Shown here one piece after another: positions 5,305-22,675 of a stretch of 64,000 nt of DNA. Every line of letters starts with the position of its first letter. The stretch's first letter is position 1. A program made the translations under genes and the position numbers. Source of the stretch: Rhodothermales bacterium (GTDB lineage Bacteria > Bacteroidota > Rhodothermia > Rhodothermales > Bin80); contig CBDBLZ010000021.1 in the NCBI GenBank assembly GCA_965207385.1, positions 641,205 to 705,204 on the forward strand. The letters run 5' to 3'. Under the pieces are notes generated by a model. The model was given only the letters and a program-made list of their open reading frames with translations. It searched no databases and was not told the DNA's origin.

Positions 5305-6093
5305 TCAGTCGCGGCAAGGCAGTGGTTTCCGTTCCAGCTGCAGGCGAATCTGGTCCAGGTGGTTGAGATATGCGTGCGCGTCCCCGATGGTATAGATAAG
5401 ATCCCCGGCTCCAAGGTCCGTCTGCTGTGCGACCATGTGGGTGAGCAGCGCATACTGCGCAATATTGAACGGCGCGCCCAGAAAGAGATCATTGGACCGG
5501 ATATACAAATGGCAGCTCAGCTTGCCGGTGGCGACGTAGAACTGATAGAACATGTGGCACGGCGGCAGCGCCATTTCGTGCACCCGACTCGGGTCCCACG
5601 CGCTGACTACGTGCCGGCGGCTGTAGGGGCGTTTCCGTACCGATTCAATTACGGCCGCTATCTGATCCGTGCCGCAAAAGTCCCGCCACTGCCTGCCATA
5701 AACGGGTCCGAGGTCTCCATGCCTTTCGGCAAAGTCGCCGTCCTCACGGATGCGCTTTTCGAATGCTTCCTTATGCGTCTGCCATTCGTCCGAGTTGGGT
5801 TTGGGTACGGCGGTCCCGGAAGATTCCAGATACCTGGCCAGCGGCCAGTCCGTCCATATCGAGATGCCGGCGTCCACTAGCGGCTTTATGTTGGATGAGC
5901 CCGTCAGAAACCACAGCATTTCAAGGGCGAGCGCTCGGAACCACACGCGTTTCGTCGTCACAATCGGAAAGCCTTCTTCAAGGTCAAACCTCATCTGGTA
6001 ACCGAAAACGCTGAGCGTGCCTGTGCCCGTGCGGTCCTCCTTGCGCTCTCCATGCGCCAGCACATGCTCAAGAAGATCGAGATACGCCTGCAT
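5305..6093 (-). CDS. thyA: thymidylate synthase ThyA, reading frame broken near the 3' end (conserved C-terminus continues in another frame to 5201)
   Basis: [65 protein letters not shown]. The ORF stops at [10 protein letters not shown]. The -1 frame then reads [38 protein letters not shown] and ends at 5201, which matches E. coli [38 protein letters not shown]. Confidence 0.85.
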
Positions 6094-8068: not shown

Positions 8069-11000
8069 ATGACCGTCAGATGCGACGCCCCGGGGCATGC
8101 TGCCACCCCGGCTTTCGGGCAGGCAAATGGGAGGACCGGCTACGCCAAGGTGAGGTCGCTCCTATTTCAGACGTCAGCGGCTTCAATGCTGGCTTGTGCC
8201 CTTGTGGCATGCAGGCCGGCGCCGGACACCGGCCCCAGGAAGGTCGAAGTGTTGTTCCTTGGTCATGAGAGCACGCACCATGACGCGCAGACCTACGCGT
8301 CTGCCGTTGCTGCGTCCTTTGCTCGGGAGGGCATCAATATTTCGTATTCCAACGATCCGAGCGTACTGGAGCCGGCCACACTTGACCTGTATGATGTTCT
8401 GCTTCTGTATGCCAACCACGATTCCATTACCGCTTCACAGGAGAGGGCACTGCTGGACTTTGTGGCCTCCGGAAATGGATTTGTGCCGGTGCACAGCGCC
8501 TCGTACTGCTTCAGGAATTCGGATGCATTTGTGCGGCTTGTCGGTGCCCAGTTCCAGGAGCACGGCGTTGGCAGGTTTACGGCCCCGATCCTCCAGGCGG
8601 ACCACCCTGCCATGCAAGGGCTCAAGGAATTCGAAACGTGGGACGAAACCTACGTGCACACGAGGCATGCACCAGACCGAGCCGTGCTCATGGAGCGCGT
8701 GGACGGCCAACACCGCGAGCCCTGGACATGGACGCGCACGCACGGCAAGGGGCGGGTGTTCTATACCGCCTATGGCCATGACGAACGCACATGGAACCAT
8801 CCGGATTTCCTGAATCTCCTCAAGGCGGGTCTGCTGTGGGCCGCGGGGGATAGAGTGCGTGCGCGATGGGAGGCGCTCGATCTTCCGCCGCTGGTTTACT
8901 CACCGCACGACAGCATTCCCAACTACGAGGAGCGGGATCCTCCTCCCAGGTTTCAGCATCCCCTGTCGCCGGAGGCTTCCCGGGCTCACATGCAGATTCC
9001 GCCCGGATTTGAATTGACACTATTTGCCTCCGAGCCGCTCATCAGAAACCCTATTGCGATGGCCTGGGACGAGCGGGGAAGGCTTTTCGTGATAGAAACT
9101 CGGGACTATCCTCACAACCTGCGCTCGGAAGGGGGCGATGCGATAAAGATCCTGCACGACACGGATGCGGATGGCAGGGCAGACTCCGTCACCGTGTTTG
9201 CTGACGGGCTCAGCATTGCCACAGGTCTCGCGTTCGCACACGATGGCCTCATAGTGTCCCAGGCGCCCGACATGCTCTTCCTGCAGGATACGGACGGAGA
9301 CGACAGGGCTGACAGGCGCGAGGTGTTGTTCTCGGGATTCGGGACAGGGGACACGCACGCCGGTCCGTCGAATCTCAAGGCTGGCTTTGATAACTGGACC
9401 TGGGGCACGGTGGGATACAGTGATTTCGAGGGAGTGGTGGGCGGTGACACCGTTCGAATGGTTCAGGGTGTATTTCGATTCAGGCCCGGCCAGTTGGAAC
9501 AGGTTTCCACGTATACGAACAATACTTGGGGACTTGGTTTCTCGGAGACGTTCGACGTTTTCGGATCCACCGCCAACAATGAGCACAGCGTGTTCGTCGC
9601 GATACCGGATCGATACTATGCCGGTGTCCCGGGACTGCTGGGCGATGGCAAGATCAAGATCGATGGCCACTATGCCATGCGGCCCAATACGCCCAACATT
9701 CGTCAGGTCGACGTATGGGGCGGATTTACCTCCGCTGCGGGGCACAACCTGTATACGGCGCGCGATTTCCCTGACGAATACTGGAATCGCATCGCCCTTG
9801 TCAACGAGCCAACAGGTCACCTTCTGCACCGGGCAATCATCGAGAGCGCAGGATCGGGCTACCGTGAGCGAGATGCCTGGAATCTCCTGGCAAGTGCCGA
9901 TGAATGGGTGTCGCCCGTACATGCAGAAGTGGGGCCGGACGGCGCCGTGTGGATTCTGGACTGGTACAACTTTATCGTGCAGCACAATCCCACGCCCGAG
10001 GGATTTCGCACGGGAAGGGGAGCTGCCCACGTCAATATTCTGCGGGATTACCAGCACGGACGCATTTACCGGCTCGCGTACAGGAATGCAAGGCGCCGAC
10101 GCATTCCAGAGCTGGACATTGAGCGGCCGTCTACCCTGCTAAGGGCACTTCAACATGACAACATGTTCTGGCGCATGACGGCCCAGAGGCTTCTGGTGGA
10201 GCGCGGCGGCCTTGATGTAGTGCCTGGTCTGCTGGAAATCGCGAGCGATGCGGGACTGGATGCAATAGGCCTGAATGGAGGCGCCGCGCACGCGCTTTGG
10301 ACCCTCCAGGGACTGGATGCCGTGCGTGGAGAAGCGCTGCGCATTGTGGAGTCAGCTCTTCGGCACGCGGCGCCAGGCGTCAGAAAGGCGGCGCTGGCCG
10401 TGCTTCCACGGACGGATTCCAGTCTCTCGGCCATTCGGCGCGCCGGCGTGCTGGAGGACAAGAATCTTAATGTTCGTCTGGCGGCGTTTCTGGCGGCTTC
10501 CGAAATGCCCGCCGACCGTGAGACGGGAGCCGTGCTCTACGGGCAGAGCACGCTGCCTGAAGTCAGGACGGATGTCTGGCTTCCGGAGGCGCTGTACATT
10601 GCGGCAAGCCGCCATTGGGAAGGGTTCGTGGACGCGTACGCGCAGGACCTGGGGGCGCTCGCATTCACACGGATGGCAGCTCGCCTTGCCTCCGGTTACA
10701 CGGAGACCCCGACAGACTGGTCAGCGCCCGATCTGGAAACATCGGAGTGGGGGACCATGGCCCTTCCGATGCCATGGGTAAGGACAAATGCACTGACGTC
10801 ATTCGATGGAGCCGTGTGGTTTCGCATTGAGGTCCACCTGCCGGATGCGCCCGCAGGTGCGACGCTCGGCCTGGGCGCGATATATGACAGCGACGTGACC
10901 TTTGTGAACGGCGAGCAGATCGGGGAAACCCTGAACGGCTACGATGCAGCGCGGGTCTACGGCATCCCGCCGGGTCTGTTGCAGGCCGGCCGCAACGTGG

Positions 11001-11641
11001 TTGCTGTCCGCGTGGACGATCCCCGCGGTCGTGGAGGGTTTTGGGGTAGTGCGTATGACCTGTTCCTGCGCACGGGCGGCAGAGCGCATTCGCTTGCCGC
11101 CGAGTGGCACTTCAAAGTCGAGGAGGAATATGTCGGCGGCAAGAAGAGCGAGCTGGCTGCGCATACGCCGATTGCGGAGCACTTTGTCCGGCACCACCTG
11201 GACCGGCTCGATATCGCAGCAGAACGTGTTGGTCCGTCTGCCAACAACGAAACGATACATGAACTGACTCTTTCGGTTATTCCGGGCGCACTGCAGTATG
11301 ACCGCACCTTGCTTGAGATTCCCGCCGGAAGCCTTGCAAGGCTGACGCTTACCAATCCAGGGGATATGCCCCACAACGCCGTGTTTACGGCCCCCGGCAC
11401 CGCGGAAGCTGTCGGACTGAGGTCAGAAAGGGAGGCGGCCGTGGGAGTTTTCGTTCCTGATACGTCTGCCGTGCTGTTTGCCACTGGCATGGCAGACCCG
11501 GGGTCCGAGATTTCGGTAACGTTTCGATCGCCGTCCGCGCCCGGTGACTATCCGTTTCTCTGCACGTATCCGGGCCACTGGAGAGTGATGCAGGGAGTAC
11601 TGCGCGTGACGCGGAATGCGACGGGCCGCGAGGCTTCGTAG
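8069..11641 (+). CDS. large exported multidomain protein: ThuA-like + beta-propeller (membrane-bound dehydrogenase-type) + HEAT-like repeats + jelly-roll + C-terminal cupredoxin
   Basis: 1190 aa. It has a lipobox-like N-terminus (SMLACALVAC). The ThuA-like region reads VLFLGHESTHH..LLLYANHD..FVPVHSASYCF. The middle region is of the propeller/dehydrogenase type (WDERGRLFVIETRDYP, WILDWYNFIVQHNP). The C-terminus reads GDMPHNAVF....GDYPFLCTYPGHWRVMQG, an azurin/plastocyanin-type H..C..H..M copper ligand pattern. Confidence 0.75.
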   Translation: MTVRCDAPGHAATPAFGQANGRTGYAKVRSLLFQTSAASMLACALVACRPAPDTGPRKVEVLFLGHESTHHDAQTYASAVAASFAREGINISYSNDPSVLEPATLDLYDVLLLYANHDSITASQERALLDFVASGNGFVPVHSASYCFRNSDAFVRLVGAQFQEHGVGRFTAPILQADHPAMQGLKEFETWDETYVHTRHAPDRAVLMERVDGQHREPWTWTRTHGKGRVFYTAYGHDERTWNHPDFLNLLKAGLLWAAGDRVRARWEALDLPPLVYSPHDSIPNYEERDPPPRFQHPLSPEASRAHMQIPPGFELTLFASEPLIRNPIAMAWDERGRLFVIETRDYPHNLRSEGGDAIKILHDTDADGRADSVTVFADGLSIATGLAFAHDGLIVSQAPDMLFLQDTDGDDRADRREVLFSGFGTGDTHAGPSNLKAGFDNWTWGTVGYSDFEGVVGGDTVRMVQGVFRFRPGQLEQVSTYTNNTWGLGFSETFDVFGSTANNEHSVFVAIPDRYYAGVPGLLGDGKIKIDGHYAMRPNTPNIRQVDVWGGFTSAAGHNLYTARDFPDEYWNRIALVNEPTGHLLHRAIIESAGSGYRERDAWNLLASADEWVSPVHAEVGPDGAVWILDWYNFIVQHNPTPEGFRTGRGAAHVNILRDYQHGRIYRLAYRNARRRRIPELDIERPSTLLRALQHDNMFWRMTAQRLLVERGGLDVVPGLLEIASDAGLDAIGLNGGAAHALWTLQGLDAVRGEALRIVESALRHAAPGVRKAALAVLPRTDSSLSAIRRAGVLEDKNLNVRLAAFLAASEMPADRETGAVLYGQSTLPEVRTDVWLPEALYIAASRHWEGFVDAYAQDLGALAFTRMAARLASGYTETPTDWSAPDLETSEWGTMALPMPWVRTNALTSFDGAVWFRIEVHLPDAPAGATLGLGAIYDSDVTFVNGEQIGETLNGYDAARVYGIPPGLLQAGRNVVAVRVDDPRGRGGFWGSAYDLFLRTGGRAHSLAAEWHFKVEEEYVGGKKSELAAHTPIAEHFVRHHLDRLDIAAERVGPSANNETIHELTLSVIPGALQYDRTLLEIPAGSLARLTLTNPGDMPHNAVFTAPGTAEAVGLRSEREAAVGVFVPDTSAVLFATGMADPGSEISVTFRSPSAPGDYPFLCTYPGHWRVMQGVLRVTRNATGREAS

Positions 11642-12010
11642 CTCCGGGCGCTTGCTTTGATAGCGGCGTTTTGTGTCTATCCTCGGACATGACGTAGCCT
11701 CGATTATCGAGCCACGGCCACCATCAGGGCAATAGCTGTCACTATCAAGCCTACGCGTCAATTCCATCCGCTGCGTCGCCGATTCTTGGTCCGGGAACTT
11801 ATCCAGTAATCCCAATCAATTCACTGCCTGCACTCTCTGCCACATGAAATATGCTATCTGCGAGGGAAATATCAATAGACTTGCCACATAATCTCTACAG
11901 TGTTGTCACAAATCCTGTTCCCGTCGTCTTCAGTTGTACATCTCCAACGACTTCCCTATATTGAAAGCACAACATTTCTTCACCGATATTCGTTAACCAG
12001 CTAGATACAA

Positions 12011-12298
12011 GTGACCATGAAGATCATAGCTATGAAGACCGTAGACAGGACGGTATTCTCGGCATTACTATTCGCAGGGCTGGCCATCCTGGCATTTGCG
12101 GGTGGTGGGCTTTTTAATGCAGCGTTTCTCTCACCCGCTGATACTCAAGCGGGTGACGATACTTGTGACCACGACGTTTGCAAAGAGATCACATACGCAG
12201 ATGACTCAGTGGAGTGGGTCTGCGGAGACGATGGGACATTTACTTGGGAAGATTGCAATGCCCAACACAATAAGGAATGCGACATGGATGACTGTTGA
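12011..12298 (+). CDS. exported acidic Cys-rich mini-protein (cassette 1)
   Basis: 95 aa with GTG at 12011 and ATG at 12017. The leader is hydrophobic (FSALLFAGLAILAFAGGG). The tail is GDDTCDHDVCKEITYADDSVEWVCGDDGTFTWEDCNAQHNKECDMDDC, with 6 Cys and 16 D/E among the last 48 residues, and it ends on Cys. It lies in an AT-rich island preceded by about 370 bp of non-coding sequence. Confidence 0.6.
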   Translation: MTMKIIAMKTVDRTVFSALLFAGLAILAFAGGGLFNAAFLSPADTQAGDDTCDHDVCKEITYADDSVEWVCGDDGTFTWEDCNAQHNKECDMDDC

Positions 12299-13052: not shown

Positions 13053-14198
13053 ATGATTTCCTGGAAGCTACGCATCATAATTCTTTGTGCCGTTATCGGG
13101 CTACTTTTGGTTGTTGCCCTTCTCGCGAATATCGTAGGTGATAGAATCGGCGGGGCGACTAATCCTGTCGGAGAAGTACGCCATCCTACTCCCGAGAACA
13201 TACCCTCGGTAACCGATGCACGCCGCGTAGCAGGCCATGGGCCCGCTACCGGCGATGGTAGTCATGCCTTCTTGGATTCAACGTCCTACAGCGAGCTAAC
13301 TATTGGTGTAGCAGAGGGATCGGCGCACGAAATGTTCGGCCTGATTGAAGATGTCGTCATCGACTATAGTGGCAACATTTTTATTTTGGATTCTCAGTAT
13401 AACCAGGTGCGAGTATTCGACTATGATGGCTCCTTCATTAGCACGATCGGTGCTCCTGGACAAGGACCGGGTGAATTCCTTTCTGCACGAAATGTGTTGA
13501 TTTCCTCTCTAGGGAACATTGTTGCGGTTATGAGTGGCCCGAAGATCGAGATGTTTGAACGACAGGGTCCGACTTCTTTCGCATACCGCTCTACTTTCTC
13601 CAGAGAAGGTTACCTTGGGCCCGGCGGATGCGCAATGAACAACCATTTGTATCTATTGGCCGTAGTTCCCAATAGGGACGGTATGATACATAAACATACG
13701 CTCGACGGCGAAATAGCCCGTTCTTTTGGAGCGCTATACAATTCTGACAACGAACAAGTTGTCAGACATATGTCGACGAAAGCTCGACTAGCGTGTAGTG
13801 AGAAGTATAGTATTGTAAGCTTCCTTATGGACTTTTCGCCGGTTCTTACCGGCTATCGCGAAGACGGTACGGTGGCTTGGCATGTGTCATTCGAGGGTTT
13901 TCTGGCATCGGCCGTTTGGGAAAGAAGAACTCCGGAAGGCCGGAATCGTATCTCGTATAGCGCAAATGAGGTCGGGGAAGCGTTCTACACGCATATGTTT
14001 TTTCATCATGATCACTTTTACGTCGGTTACAGAGTACGAGGTGATGGCACAGGACAGCACTTCAGAATTCACGCAGAAAGTGGGTATACGGAGTACTTGG
14101 GAACTCTCGACGCAGCAGTCTATGGTATCGACGGAGAGCGTGTAATAGTGGCCAGGAATTTTCCGTTCCCGAGAGTCAAGGTGTTCACTAGGCGATAG
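13053..14198 (+). CDS. 6-bladed beta-propeller protein (NHL/DUF5128-like), N-terminal signal anchor (cassette 1)
   Basis: 381 aa. TM segment LRIIILCAVIGLLLVVALLANIV. Blade motif DYSGNIFILDSQYNQVRVFDYDGSFISTIGAPGQGPGEF. It is a paralogue of 21150..22166. Confidence 0.75.
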   Translation: MISWKLRIIILCAVIGLLLVVALLANIVGDRIGGATNPVGEVRHPTPENIPSVTDARRVAGHGPATGDGSHAFLDSTSYSELTIGVAEGSAHEMFGLIEDVVIDYSGNIFILDSQYNQVRVFDYDGSFISTIGAPGQGPGEFLSARNVLISSLGNIVAVMSGPKIEMFERQGPTSFAYRSTFSREGYLGPGGCAMNNHLYLLAVVPNRDGMIHKHTLDGEIARSFGALYNSDNEQVVRHMSTKARLACSEKYSIVSFLMDFSPVLTGYREDGTVAWHVSFEGFLASAVWERRTPEGRNRISYSANEVGEAFYTHMFFHHDHFYVGYRVRGDGTGQHFRIHAESGYTEYLGTLDAAVYGIDGERVIVARNFPFPRVKVFTRR

Positions 14199-14206
14199 AC
14201 GCTCAC

Positions 14207-14812
14207 GTGAAGGTACTTGAAGTCAAGTGGATACGGTGGGGAGGCGCTGGTATAGTGGCGTCGTGTTTTTGGCTCGGGGCCGTGGTGGGAATTCCGATTT
14301 CGTCAGTGGAAATTCATTGGAGAGTAAAAGACTCTCAGCCTGGGGAAAGGTATGTGCCCTCACATTCTGTGGTTAGCGGGCGGGAAATGGTGATGGTTTA
14401 TCTTGGCGCGTATTCTTGTGCGTTCGCAAATGACGAGGCGTTGCCTCGGATTGTTGAGAGGATTAAGCTTGGTTTGCAGGACAAGGCTGTGAACGAGGGT
14501 ATGTCATTTTCAGCTATTGGAGTGGCGGTGGATTGGCGCGTTGGTGAGGGAGTTGAACACTTGGAAAAATTTGGACAGTTTGATGAGATCTTGGCTGGGC
14601 GCAAATGGCACGGAGTCGGCTCTCTGCAGTTCTTCAAGGAACGGTTAGCGGGAGTAGCGGCGACGCCGCAAGTCTTGGTGTTTAAGCGGGATATAGAGGC
14701 GGAAGAGGGTGCATTTCGAGTGTCGAACGAACGCGTGCTTGTCCGAAAGATGGGCGTGTTAGGCATAGGCAATTGGCTTGAACGCGGGTTGCCTTTGCCT
14801 GAGAACTTATAG
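14207..14812 (+). CDS. membrane-anchored thioredoxin-fold protein, monothiol CAFA variant (cassette 1)
   Basis: 201 aa with a GTG start 8 nt after the propeller stop. TM segment AGIVASCFWLGAVVGIPI. VMVYLGAYSCAFANDEALPRIVERI aligns with the CSFC site of 22169..22675. A later TPQVLVF looks like a cis-Pro loop. Confidence 0.55.
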   Translation: MKVLEVKWIRWGGAGIVASCFWLGAVVGIPISSVEIHWRVKDSQPGERYVPSHSVVSGREMVMVYLGAYSCAFANDEALPRIVERIKLGLQDKAVNEGMSFSAIGVAVDWRVGEGVEHLEKFGQFDEILAGRKWHGVGSLQFFKERLAGVAATPQVLVFKRDIEAEEGAFRVSNERVLVRKMGVLGIGNWLERGLPLPENL

Positions 14813-19625: not shown

Positions 19626-20583
19626 GTAGCTTGGCCGCTTTGACGTGATCGATTCCAGCTCCAACTCCAGCATACAAGGTAGAGGATAAGCCAATTACGA
19701 ACTCGCCCAAGTCGAATGCCTGAGATGAACCCAACCGCTACTTCCACTATCGTAGACAACTTGGAATCGATTGGCACGATTAAGCAGACTTGGCCTTAGG
19801 ACCGCAGTGGATGTCACGGCGTGGCCTTGGCGAAGAGGTCCCTTGAACAGCCGTAAGAAGATTGGCAGTAGCAAATTGGCCGGCACGATAGCTCACTTGA
19901 TAGTTCGCGGCCATAGGCGCGGGACGGGGGCCCACCAATCTTATTGGCAGATGCGGGACCAACAAACCACCGTGGCAACCGCGGACCCAAGGCGCGCTGT
20001 GGGCCCTTAGGATCACTGTGTCCGCGGCGATCGCCAGACTGACACGGGATTCACGGAGTGGCACACGGAAAAAGGACCGGTGGAACTAGGGTTGGGACGG
20101 ACGAGCGGATAGACCAGATTAAACTCGGTAGAAGGTTAGGATTCGATCCGACTGGAAGCCTTGTCGGTGCTGCAGCACAGTGCAACCGGCATCCCGCAAG
20201 GGGCTGGCGGGCCAATAGGGTAGTAGATGGCACCGTACTACCGAAGCCATTGGGTAATGCCTACCGAGGAAAGCAGCCTTGAGCTGAGCGCTGTGTGGAC
20301 GGACGTAAATCGATGTCCGGGACGTAAGCGGTACTGTAATCGCTATACTTTACCAGATCTAAAATGTCCATTTATGGTTCTCCGAGTAGTCCAATAATGG
20401 CGTGCCCTCTCTAAGGGCCCGTCCCGGCTGCTGCCAACCATATCGACGTGGCCTCGAACGATTCCCGTCAGCCTACGTCTTCATCCATTCTTAACTCGCA
20501 AGCACTCGAACATTACTTGTCGCCCATTATGACATTCTCTCTACTTCGTCCGCTACTTACTCGTACATGTCAACTAAATCTCT

Positions 20584-20862
20584 ATGACCATGCATGCCCA
20601 TAGCCGTTCAATCAGTCGGACCTTTCTCGCTCTAGCGTCGGCCGCTACTTTCATTGTGCTGGCCCTTTCATTTCCCGACGGCCAAGTAGCGCAAGCGAGA
20701 GACCCAGTGTGCAATGGAACTTGCGGCGCGCATTGCGATCTAGGCCCGGATTACTACTGCCACACGCTCTATTGTTGCGATAGGAGCCAACTTCCGTGCT
20801 CCGAAGGAGATGTGGAACCCTTCACCTGCTATGGCGACACCGACATTATGGTCACGCCCTAA
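20584..20862 (+). CDS. exported Cys-rich mini-protein (cassette 2, copy A)
   Basis: 92 aa. Leader RTFLALASAATFIVLALSF..VAQA. Tail RDPVCNGTCGAHCDLGPDYYCHTLYCCDRSQLPCSEGDVEPFTCYGDTDIMVTP has 8 Cys. Like 12011, it begins M-T-M (ATGACCATG versus GTGACCATG). Confidence 0.6.
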   Translation: MTMHAHSRSISRTFLALASAATFIVLALSFPDGQVAQARDPVCNGTCGAHCDLGPDYYCHTLYCCDRSQLPCSEGDVEPFTCYGDTDIMVTP

Positions 20863-20883
20863 CACTAAACAAACGGTGCCTTC

Positions 20884-21153
20884 ATGATCAAGAAAAGGAT
20901 TTCTCGCTTACTCGTGTCGGTCCTCCTGACAGGGCTATTCTTAAGTCTAACGTTGGCTTCCTCTACCGCAGGCAAAGTCCCAGTCCCTGACTGCGGAGCT
21001 GATGCGATGCGCCGTTGTATCGCAGCAGGATGCGGGGGCGATGAGGTGGTGCTATGCGGTTCCACGACGTGTCTGGAATGTGTCGATTTTGCGGGTCTTT
21101 TTAATTTGGGTTGCTGGCTCAAGGACTTCTACTGTTACGGGGACTATCCATGA
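20884..21153 (+). CDS. exported Cys-rich mini-protein (cassette 2, copy B)
   Basis: 89 aa. Signal peptide MIKKRISRLLVSVLLTGLFLSLTLASS. Tail VPVPDCGADAMRRCIAAGCGGDEVVLCGSTTCLECVDFAGLFNLGCWLKDFYCYGDYP has 8 Cys. Its stop overlaps the next gene's ATG (ATGA at 21150-21153). Confidence 0.65.
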   Translation: MIKKRISRLLVSVLLTGLFLSLTLASSTAGKVPVPDCGADAMRRCIAAGCGGDEVVLCGSTTCLECVDFAGLFNLGCWLKDFYCYGDYP

Positions 21154-22166
21154 TCCGAACTCTGTCCTTCTTCTTGTGCCTGTCTTTGGTGTCGTGCCGC
21201 GCCACGCCAGCGGGACAAGATGGTACACGGCTCTTTGCCAAATTGTTGCTGTCGCCGGTCACGGAACAAGAAGCACAAGAACGGGAGTGGCGCGATGTTT
21301 CTCTCCGCCAGGTATTCAGCTTGCCAAGGTCACCGGATGTGTTGCTGTTTAACCCGGGAGAGATTACAGTTGATGCCGCAGGAAATATTTTCGTGACAGA
21401 TCACGCTGTGTTCAAGGTCTTGGCTTTTGATCAGGACGGCCACTATATCAGATCGTATGGAGAGGGAGAAGGAGAAGGGCCTGGTGAGTTGAGATCCGTA
21501 ATGAATACTGGATTAATCGGCGACACCACGCTTTTTGCCGTAGACTACGCTTCTAGGAAGATCTCATACTTCTCCAAAGATTCAGGAGCCTTTATTGAAT
21601 CTCGTACGATCACCGGAGTGCCCATTAGGCACACTGTTAGTACCGAAGGTGTCGCGTATACGCTGGTCGGTCGTACCGACTCGCTATTCCGATCCGAGAG
21701 TGGATCAGATGTGATCCAGTTCGGGGAATTGGTTGAGAATCAAATCTCACATGGCTTTAACCTGGCCTTAGGGTATATCGATACATACCGGGACAAGATG
21801 TTGCTCAGCCTAACCTACTTCCCAGTAATTGCGCAATACGAATCAGATGGGTCCCTCGTGTATGCGCGCACAACTCCGGACTATTTCGCGCAGTTTGACG
21901 AGCCGGAATGGGTGCGCACCGACTTTGCGGGAGCCATCGGTTTTCGTATTCAGGGCCAGGCGATTAACACTAGAAGCAGCGTGTACAACGATCAGCTTTT
22001 TGTGCATTCACGGAAAGCAGGTGCTATTGACGTGTTCGATGCCGAGACGGGTGACTACGGTTACTCCTTCCGGCTTCCACGAGATAGGAGTGCAGCGTAT
22101 GTTATGAACAATCGTCTGTATCAAGCGGAAGATACAACCGTAGTTGTATACTCATTTAGCTTGTAA
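21150..22166 (+). CDS. 6-bladed beta-propeller lipoprotein (NHL/DUF5128-like) (cassette 2)
   Basis: ORF 21111..22166. The likely start is MIRTLSFFLCLSLVSC (lipobox) at 21150. Blade motif DAAGNIFVTDHAVFKVLAFDQDGHYIRSYGEGEGEGPGEL. It is a paralogue of 13053..14198. Confidence 0.75.
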   Translation: MIRTLSFFLCLSLVSCRATPAGQDGTRLFAKLLLSPVTEQEAQEREWRDVSLRQVFSLPRSPDVLLFNPGEITVDAAGNIFVTDHAVFKVLAFDQDGHYIRSYGEGEGEGPGELRSVMNTGLIGDTTLFAVDYASRKISYFSKDSGAFIESRTITGVPIRHTVSTEGVAYTLVGRTDSLFRSESGSDVIQFGELVENQISHGFNLALGYIDTYRDKMLLSLTYFPVIAQYESDGSLVYARTTPDYFAQFDEPEWVRTDFAGAIGFRIQGQAINTRSSVYNDQLFVHSRKAGAIDVFDAETGDYGYSFRLPRDRSAAYVMNNRLYQAEDTTVVVYSFSL

Positions 22167-22168
22167 CG

Positions 22169-22675
22169 GTGAGTAGACCCGCATCTCGGACGCCGTTGAT
22201 AATGGAATGGGTCAGTTACGCTGTCCTATTGGTTACCATTGTCATGTTCGCTTGGACGGTTTTCGGACCGCCAGAACCCACACCGTATGTCGACGTTGGC
22301 GATAGCATTCAGGCCGTGAAAGGTATGGAAGGGGAGTGGCCGGGCGAAAGCCTGTTGTTGGTTTTGTCCCCGACGTGTTCTTTCTGCACGGGAAGCCTGC
22401 CGTTCTATAAGCAGTTGGTGGATCAGAGAGAGAGGGAGGTGAACATAATTGTTGCTATAGATACCAGTGCGTCTGCAACTTTGCAGCGGCGTCTACTCGG
22501 GCAAGCAGGGGTAGCTCCGGATACGACGATCGTAATTCCTACGGTAGACGATAGGGTTGTGTATGTCCCAACAATTATTCACGTAGATCAAGGAGCGATG
22601 GCAAAGAGAGTGTGGGTTGGCCAGTTGAATGGCGAACAGGAAGAAGAAGTACTGTCGATTGTACGAATGAAGTAG
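22169..22675 (+). CDS. membrane-anchored thioredoxin-like protein with CxxC (CSFC) (cassette 2)
   Basis: 168 aa with a GTG start 2 nt after the propeller stop. TM segment WVSYAVLLVTIVMFAWTVF. LLLVLSPTCSFCTGSLPFYKQL is a TlpA/ResA-type active-site context, and VPTIIHVD looks like a cis-Pro loop. Confidence 0.65.
   Translation: MSRPASRTPLIMEWVSYAVLLVTIVMFAWTVFGPPEPTPYVDVGDSIQAVKGMEGEWPGESLLLVLSPTCSFCTGSLPFYKQLVDQREREVNIIVAIDTSASATLQRRLLGQAGVAPDTTIVIPTVDDRVVYVPTIIHVDQGAMAKRVWVGQLNGEQEEEVLSIVRMK

Follow-up and report, generated by a model that had tools for sequence, protein, structure and literature searches.

A rare, mobile four-gene cassette of Rhodothermales encoding two Cys-rich mini-proteins, a DUF5128 β-propeller lipoprotein and a putative thioredoxin-fold protein

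The Locus and Its Products

The DNA considered here, referred to as the window, is a stretch of 64,000 nucleotides from a Rhodothermales bacterium (assembly GCA_965207385.1, contig CBDBLZ010000021.1, positions 641,205 to 705,204). It carries two small gene cassettes (Table 1), both recognizable as low-GC patches (0.51–0.52, against 0.59 for the window). The main subject is the second of them (cassette 2), whose four genes lie on one strand in the order pepA, pepB, a β-propeller lipoprotein gene and a gene coding for a membrane-anchored CxxC protein (the Trx-like gene). The stop codon of pepB and the start codon of the propeller gene overlap (ATGA), only 2 nt separate the propeller and Trx-like genes, and the cassette is bounded by a DUF1553-type gene and a GGT gene. 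An annotation made earlier from the DNA letters only (the sequence-only reading) had drawn attention to tandem open reading frames (ORFs) with eight Cys and a CYGD tail each, to a CC pair in the first copy and to a six-Cys peptide in cassette 1. All of these are present, with pepA ending in ..VEPFTCYGDTDIMVTP and pepB in ..LKDFYCYGDYP.

Table 1. Features of the two cassettes (window coordinates).
Feature	Position	Strand	Description
pepA	20590..20862 (92-aa version from 20584)	+	90-aa precursor; predicted Sec-type signal peptide and, once mature, ~54 aa with 8 Cys, two of them adjacent (CC)
C-Y-G-D motif of pepA	20827..20838	+	CFGD in L001, CLGM in L011
pepB	20884..21153	+	89-aa precursor; predicted Sec-type signal peptide and ~59-aa mature part with 8 Cys
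C-Y-G-D motif of pepB	21133..21144	+	CFGE in L001, CGGS in P0030
DUF5128/NHL-type six-bladed β-propeller lipoprotein	21150..22166	+	Lipobox LVSC, Cys16; Pfam PF17170
Membrane-anchored, putative thioredoxin-fold protein	22169..22675	+	N-terminal transmembrane (TM) segment; C-S-F-C at residues 70–73; VPT cis-Pro-type motif at residues 133–135
Cassette-1 peptide	12017..12298 (longer version from 12011)	+	Predicted signal peptide and acidic 6-Cys mature part ending in ..ECDMDDC
Cassette-1 DUF5128 propeller	13053..14198	+	N-terminal membrane anchor; PF17170 at 42.8 bits; 25 relatives found
Cassette-1 third gene	14207..14812	+	Membrane-anchored protein, family unassigned; one conserved Cys in YSCAFA

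Conservation, Distribution and Decay of the Cassette

A propeller relative with 74% identity (P0002) is encoded on a 5.4-Mb contig of the Rhodothermales metagenome-assembled genome (MAG) OZ244148.1 (locus L001), where DNA homology to the window spans exactly positions 20576–22663, that is, the four genes, with unrelated sequence on both sides. IS66 and DDE transposase genes border the L001 copy, and its pepA and pepB orthologues (5450–5722 and 5744–6004, respectively) are both absent from the public gene calls, an illustration of how such short peptide genes are largely missed by gene callers. A further lineage, represented by GCA_012271205.1 (L011) and by L012–L014, has its genes in the same order, with counterparts of pepA and pepB followed by genes for a DUF5128 lipoprotein and a TM-anchored CxxC protein. 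This lineage was found only via pepB: when 1.84 billion representatives were searched exhaustively with phmmer, the result was one full-length relative (P0030, E = 4e-6), with loci in GCA_012271205.1 and in three metagenomes. The L011 pepA orthologue (5695–5985) keeps eight of eight Cys; pepA is missing from the gene calls at L012–L014, and the pepB homologue is called in GCA_012271205.1.

pepA and pepB are real genes, because their orthologues in L001 and L011–L014 conserve every Cys and because pepB shows a ratio of nonsynonymous to synonymous substitution rates (dN/dS) of 0.15 relative to its L001 orthologue (p = 4e-10 against neutrality). In the same comparison of the window with L001 the ratio is 0.19 for the propeller gene and 0.23 for the Trx-like gene; these two and pepB are under purifying selection. 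The behaviour of pepA is different, with a dN/dS of 1.05 in the single sequence pair compared (window 20590–20862 and L001 5450–5722), substitutions spread evenly over codon positions (21/23/25) and a nonsynonymous-to-synonymous ratio that departs from that of the propeller (p = 1.7e-5). Its dS is low (0.30, against 0.86–1.76 for the other three genes), and all eight Cys are kept, for which the neutral expectation is about 0.002; the picture is one of loops with a ratio near 1 on a frozen Cys scaffold. Several blocks of pepA are identical to L001 even at synonymous sites, giving the gene the appearance of a mosaic of frozen and hypervariable segments.

The cassette is rare, patchy in distribution and mobile. 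Among about 5.8 billion protein clusters, a word-indexed search with the propeller returned three close clusters, including that of the window's own protein, and the same kind of search with pepB returned none; an exact look-up of pepA gave zero matches. When the contigs of the GTDB species representatives were scanned with the propeller profile, one locus was recovered, the already known Rhodothermales MAG. Neither the pepB core (AAGCGG-x5-CGSTxC[LV][EQ]C) nor the pepA tail (EPFTC[YF]GDTD), written as degenerate DNA patterns, gave a match in the Joint Genome Institute (JGI) metagenomes, and the pepA tail pattern had none in viral contigs. Neither peptide matched a family in Pfam, NCBIfam or the PDB and, as judged from these comparisons, the two fall in no described family. 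The seven proteins of the two cassettes had no match among the anti-phage defence profiles of PADLOC and no meaningful matches in PHROGs.

In a fourth lineage (L002–L004) the cassette has decayed. The propeller is intact there (52% identical), pepA is a short remnant and the Trx-like gene is not detectable; a 54-aa ORF after the L002 propeller shows no demonstrable remnant of it. The pepB copy of this lineage is a pseudogene (L002 5850–6010, also L003 and L004). It is interrupted by an in-frame TAA and has lost an internal segment, both changes being the same in three independent metagenome assemblies, and its open part ends in ..CIDCYGIQ, so that the Cys-Tyr-Gly tail survives. At more distant loci, DUF5128 genes occur alone, in arrays of five paralogues or in islands with insertion sequence (IS) elements, AbiE and Mrr, and no Cys-rich ORFs were seen at those examined. 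The arrays of five are found in two unrelated genomes (L015 3269–10430 and L020 3823–9848, with GC contents of 0.57 and 0.40, respectively), with no small Cys-rich ORFs within or between the propeller genes.

Export Signals and Translation Starts of the Peptides

The N-termini of both peptides have the n-h-c organization of signal peptides handled by the Sec pathway and signal peptidase I, with a basic n-region, a hydrophobic core of 17–18 residues and small residues at positions −3 and −1. Cleavage is predicted in pepA at VAQA|RDP, after AQA (ARA|K in L001), and in pepB at STA|GKV (SSA|T in L001, STA|V in P0030). The small −3/−1 residues are kept in all three lineages, and the first Cys lies 5–8 residues beyond the predicted site in both peptides. 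Taken with the invariance of the Cys in the three lineages and with the presence in the operon of a gene for a membrane-anchored CxxC protein of putative thioredoxin fold, these signals favour the earlier view of pepA and pepB as exported, disulfide-bonded mini-proteins.

Translation probably starts at the second of two in-frame ATG codons (20590 in pepA, 12017 in the cassette-1 peptide gene), because the upstream start codon is not conserved, being replaced by ACC in L001 and by GTA in L006, a locus with an orthologue of the cassette-1 peptide. The sequences ATGACCATG and GTGACCATG, found at the leading peptide gene in each of the cassettes, had been taken as a hint that leaders beginning with M-T-M have a common ancestry; with the first Met not conserved, M-T-M would fall outside the peptides and is a weak sign of such ancestry. 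A separate observation concerns the DNA just upstream. In both cassettes, the leading peptide gene has a AACTAAAT-like box about 12–20 nt before an ACCATG start context (20560–20590 and 11987–12017). The box is present in four of five upstream regions compared, those of the window, L001 and L006 among them, and together with the ACCATG context it may serve both cassettes as a signal for translation or transcription.

Cys Frameworks and the Common C-Terminal Tail

The Cys frameworks in the window are C3C3C7C4CC6C9C for pepA (spacing vector 3,3,7,4,0,6,9) and C7C4C7C4C2C10C6C for pepB (7,4,7,4,2,10,6). Over the three lineages they become C3C3C7C4CC6C(9-11)C in the A family and C7C4C7C4C2C(9-12)C6C in the B family, with eight of eight Cys kept in each. 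The conserved Cys spacing anticipated by the sequence-only reading was thus found in the homologues. The CYGD tetrapeptide, which that reading had singled out as conserved and as a possible recognition or processing site, held only in part. The tail reads CYGD, CFGD or CLGM in the A family and CYGD, CFGE or CGGS in the B family, and within it all six sequences share only the last Cys-x-Gly and, 2–8 residues further on, a Pro at or near the C-terminus.

The features common to pepA and pepB exceed chance by the sequence statistics applied to them. With the mature regions shuffled at constant composition, a 4-mer common to the last 15 residues of both occurred in 0.4% of the shuffles and the pattern [FYW]xC[FYW]G[DE] in 0.08–0.2%, and the likeness of the two Cys-spacing vectors was reached by about 1.2% of random placements, all three comparisons being post hoc. 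When the family profiles were aligned with hhalign, only the signal peptides paired (probability 5–17%). The two genes are plausibly old tandem paralogues, a relationship that rests on Cys spacing and tail motif and is unproven.

The Propeller Lipoprotein and the Thioredoxin-Like Protein

The third product of the operon is a six-bladed NHL-repeat propeller of the DUF5128 family. It scores 34.8 bits against PF17170 (cutoff 22.9), its L011 homologue 40.6 bits, and the lipobox Cys is invariant. One clear NHL repeat (residues 65–108) matches Pizza, TRIM and Brat repeats in the PDB with E values of 1e-14 to 1e-9. An AlphaFold2 (AF2) model built with 13 family members (predicted local distance difference test, pLDDT, 70.5; predicted template modelling score, pTM, 0.72) is all-β with about 24 strands, and its best Foldseek matches are the NHL domains of Thin, Brat and TRIM2/3/71 (target-normalised TM-score 0.7–0.78); BF0058 of B. 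fragilis (4raa) and Vgb are also returned. The propeller is likely to be of binding type, because the solved structures closest to it are macromolecule-binding NHL domains.

For the fourth product a thioredoxin fold is weakly suggested. The CSFC or CPYC motif (CPYC in L011) and the V-P-T motif are invariant in its family, and the family profile (A10) run against the PDB returned mainly PDI and thioredoxin-fold chains on top (best E = 1.6e-3), with the CxxC aligned to CGHC. The Pfam matches of family members, namely Thioredoxin_2 (5e-4; 20.7 bits, cutoff 27), Redoxin (1.7e-3) and Thioredoxin, are all below cutoff. A single-sequence AF2 model has a TM helix predicted with confidence (residues 9–32) and an order of elements compatible with the thioredoxin fold; at a pLDDT of 48 it is too poor for a fold search.

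A Model for the Cassette

Judging from the signal peptides of the two mini-proteins, the lipobox of the propeller and the TM helix at the N-terminus of the CxxC protein, all four products would lie outside the cytoplasm. In the model favoured here, a mobile operon exports two mini-proteins with Sec signals to the periplasm, where the signal would be cut some 5–8 residues before the first Cys and each mature mini-protein, of about 55–60 residues, would fold round four disulfides. These would be formed or shuffled by the operon's own CxxC protein, its putative thioredoxin-like domain facing the periplasm. The NHL/DUF5128 lipoprotein would act as a binding partner of the mini-proteins and not as a processing enzyme, and the Cys-x-Gly...Pro tail would serve both of them in structure or docking, not as an amidation signal. 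The reading as a whole is given a probability of roughly one half.

As to the role, the best guess is a peptide-plus-protector (toxin/immunity-like) or ligand/receptor module moving between Rhodothermales genomes. Several features agree with such a role: the cassette is mobile, propellers occur as orphans and in arrays of paralogues, and the pepA loops evolve fast. A bolder version, rather unlikely in our estimate, has pepA and pepB acting as a Sec-exported, four-disulfide, two-peptide toxin or signal that belongs to a hitherto undescribed family and whose common tail docks on the propeller as immunity protein or receptor, with the peptide-free arrays and orphan propellers of Rhodothermales and other Bacteroidota being acquired immunity islands.

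Several points weigh against this model. The evidence for the thioredoxin fold lies below the Pfam cutoffs and comes with a poor AF2 model. TM-anchored thioredoxins of the TlpA, ResA and CcmG type are usually reductants, so that the Cys of the peptides could stay reduced. A role as secreted toxin is weakened by a cassette that has no outer-membrane route, lysis gene or transporter. Most DUF5128 relatives occur without peptides, and the propeller therefore does not need them; the pattern of orphan propellers is itself based on two decayed loci, and the dN/dS of pepA on one sequence pair. Finally, the hydrophobic N-termini of the peptides could be uncleaved anchors.

Alternative Explanations

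This last point leads to the alternative that survives best, considered unlikely, in which the peptides are membrane-retained accessory proteins, their Cys-rich domains tethered to the inner membrane by uncleaved signal anchors next to the Trx-like protein and the propeller. The pepB N-terminus is indeed unusually conserved, the window and L001 agreeing at 27 of its 29 residues, more than in the mature part, and h-regions of 17–18 residues could serve the purpose. The same h-regions are short for a TM helix, however, and the small −3/−1 residues placed 5–8 residues before the first Cys in all three lineages speak for cleavage.

A second possibility is a periplasmic complex resembling methylamine dehydrogenase (MADH), with the propeller as large subunit, the mini-proteins as small subunits and the Trx-like protein as a maturation factor of the MauD type. 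The small subunit of MADH contains six disulfides and needs the CxxC thioredoxin-fold protein MauD (bioRxiv 10.64898/2026.03.05.709764). The architectures run in parallel, a propeller (MauB), a small multi-disulfide protein (MauA) and a CxxC factor (MauD) being encoded together in that system as well, and the translational coupling of pepB and the propeller gene suggests a matched stoichiometry. Nevertheless, the cassette encodes no cofactor-maturation protein analogous to MauG or MauE, sequence similarity to the MADH components is absent, and the Trp pair that yields the tryptophan tryptophylquinone (TTQ) cofactor is not conserved: pepA of the window has no Trp and pepB has one, at a position that differs in P0030. 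The heavy chain of MADH is seven-bladed. The propeller here is a six-bladed NHL protein and its family persists without peptides, which leaves the MADH-like complex quite improbable.

Thiol-based buffering of metals or redox state, in which a TlpA-like reductase would keep the Cys reduced for metal binding or oxidant scavenging in the periplasm, is likewise given a low probability. In its membrane anchor and its below-cutoff Pfam match of the Redoxin/TlpA type, the Trx-like protein is reminiscent of periplasmic reductants, Cys density is high and the cassette-1 peptide is very acidic. On the other hand, motifs rich in His or Met are missing from the peptides, the cassette encodes neither a metal transporter nor a regulator, and Cys that are strictly even in number, invariant and fixed in spacing are what structural disulfides typically show. 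The L011 protein moreover carries CPYC, which is a more oxidising type of motif.

Processing of the kind known for ribosomally synthesised peptides that undergo post-translational modification (RiPPs), with the propeller trimming or amidating the peptides at the conserved C-terminal Gly, is highly improbable. The sequence-only reading had raised such a Gly-dependent modification by likening the propeller to the peptidyl-alpha-hydroxyglycine lyase (PAL) domain of PAM, which is also a six-bladed NHL-type propeller. There is an NHL repeat that weakly matches PAL (3fvz, E = 0.018), a likeness at the level of that single repeat; some six-bladed propellers are lyases, Vgb being among the Foldseek matches; and the Gly two residues past the last Cys is invariant in both peptide families. 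PAL uses a three-His zinc site, together with a catalytic Tyr and Arg. In the 11-member propeller alignment no His is invariant (H286 is the only one kept in its four cassette-2-type members), so a PAL-type site is excluded. PAL is absent from the top 50 Foldseek matches of the model, the nearest folds being binding-type NHL domains, and Pfam and other profile scans found no PHM-like monooxygenase among the four cassette genes. The conserved Gly is internal, 3–9 residues before the C-terminus, with the residues past it conserved within families (for example DTDI[MI]VTP and [DE]YP). The peptides bear Sec signals and not RiPP leaders, and many propellers of the family have no peptide partner. 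The proposal is not supported, the propeller failing as a PAL on the conserved three-His site, on the PHM partner and on the C-terminal Gly substrate.

That pepA and pepB are chance ORFs, as the missing public calls (both peptides at L001, pepA at L012–L014) and the dN/dS near 1 of pepA might suggest, is refuted by conservation, namely by intact frames with every Cys kept in three lineages, by the constraint on pepB and by the pepB homologue called in GCA_012271205.1.

Relation to Known Systems

Exported Cys-rich peptides served by a dedicated thiol oxidoreductase are already known as a kind, and the families of pepA and pepB would be new to it. In the clusters of bacteroidetocins (class IIf bacteriocins of Bacteroidetes), a thiol oxidoreductase is thought to make the disulfides of the peptide, and its deletion attenuates the activity of the secreted toxin (PMC6671954). 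Both systems consist of compact four-gene units with unrelated flanks between genomes, in which small exported Cys peptides lie beside a thiol oxidoreductase of their own, an assignment that is putative for the cassette. Bacteroidetocins, however, have four Cys and a double-glycine leader of 15 aa, and come with an ABC transporter/C39 peptidase and a 5-TM protein, whereas the cassette encodes two peptides with eight Cys and Sec signals, lacks both the double-glycine leader and the transporter/peptidase, and includes a propeller lipoprotein. In sequence, pepA and pepB showed no similarity to the bacteroidetocins. If the model holds, pepA and pepB would be two new families of bacterial disulfide-rich mini-proteins.

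The pairing of a thioredoxin-fold module with an NHL propeller also has a precedent in NHLRC2, where the two domains form one conserved functional cleft (PMC6107167). The conserved residues of NHLRC2, a protein that also has bacterial homologues, line this cleft, which implies that the two domains act on one bound partner. The likeness is one of architecture; NHLRC2 is fused and carries CC(I/V)NC, whereas the products here come from separate adjacent genes, carry CSFC or CPYC and are predicted to be extracytoplasmic. Should the model be right, the cassette would be a split, extracytoplasmic counterpart of this pairing and would make it testable, with candidate substrates encoded next door.

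DUF5128 (PF17170) comprises the “BF0058-like” exported propellers of Bacteroidota, in which paralogue arrays are common, and both propellers of the window score above its threshold. The linkage to Cys-rich peptides and a Trx-like gene was seen only in a small sublineage, in contrast to other DUF5128 genes. In the full-text literature searched there was no mention of DUF5128, nor any of NVEALA. The model, if true, would provide the first functional handle on a widespread Bacteroidota propeller family, and the toxin/immunity reading, if true, would give that family its first role.

Cassette 1 and Minor Observations

The 889 bp upstream of pepA (19695–20583) contain no convincing ORFs, are not conserved in L001 and show neither an Rfam match nor a consensus promoter. 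Scans around the operon for Rfam families, sigma-70 promoters, terminators and the Bacteroidetes −7 box produced nothing useful, and no flanking repeats marking the ends of an element were found.

The cassette-1 peptide lacks the CYGD motif, and homology to pepA or pepB could not be detected. Its L006 orthologue is 85% identical and keeps the six Cys, and at L007 only the last 13 codons of the gene remain, before an intact propeller. The membrane proteins encoded last in the two cassettes show no detectable homology to each other. The one of cassette 1, which has no profile match, carries YSCAFA and, further on, TPQVLVF, motifs reminiscent of a thioredoxin variant with CxxA; this identity found no support in profile or pairwise comparison and was set aside.

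Propellers of the cassette-1 type (the one of the window and its relatives) mostly have an N-terminal membrane anchor in place of the lipobox and share two conserved Cys (GGCAMN and LACSE) that are absent in the cassette-2 type. In some genomes their islands also contain IS21 and IS1595 transposase genes, AbiEi and Mrr. A ThuA/DUF7133/cupredoxin gene of about 1170–1190 aa (8069–11641 in the window, also at L006, L007 and L008) repeatedly adjoins these islands, and the region beside it looks like an integration hot spot.

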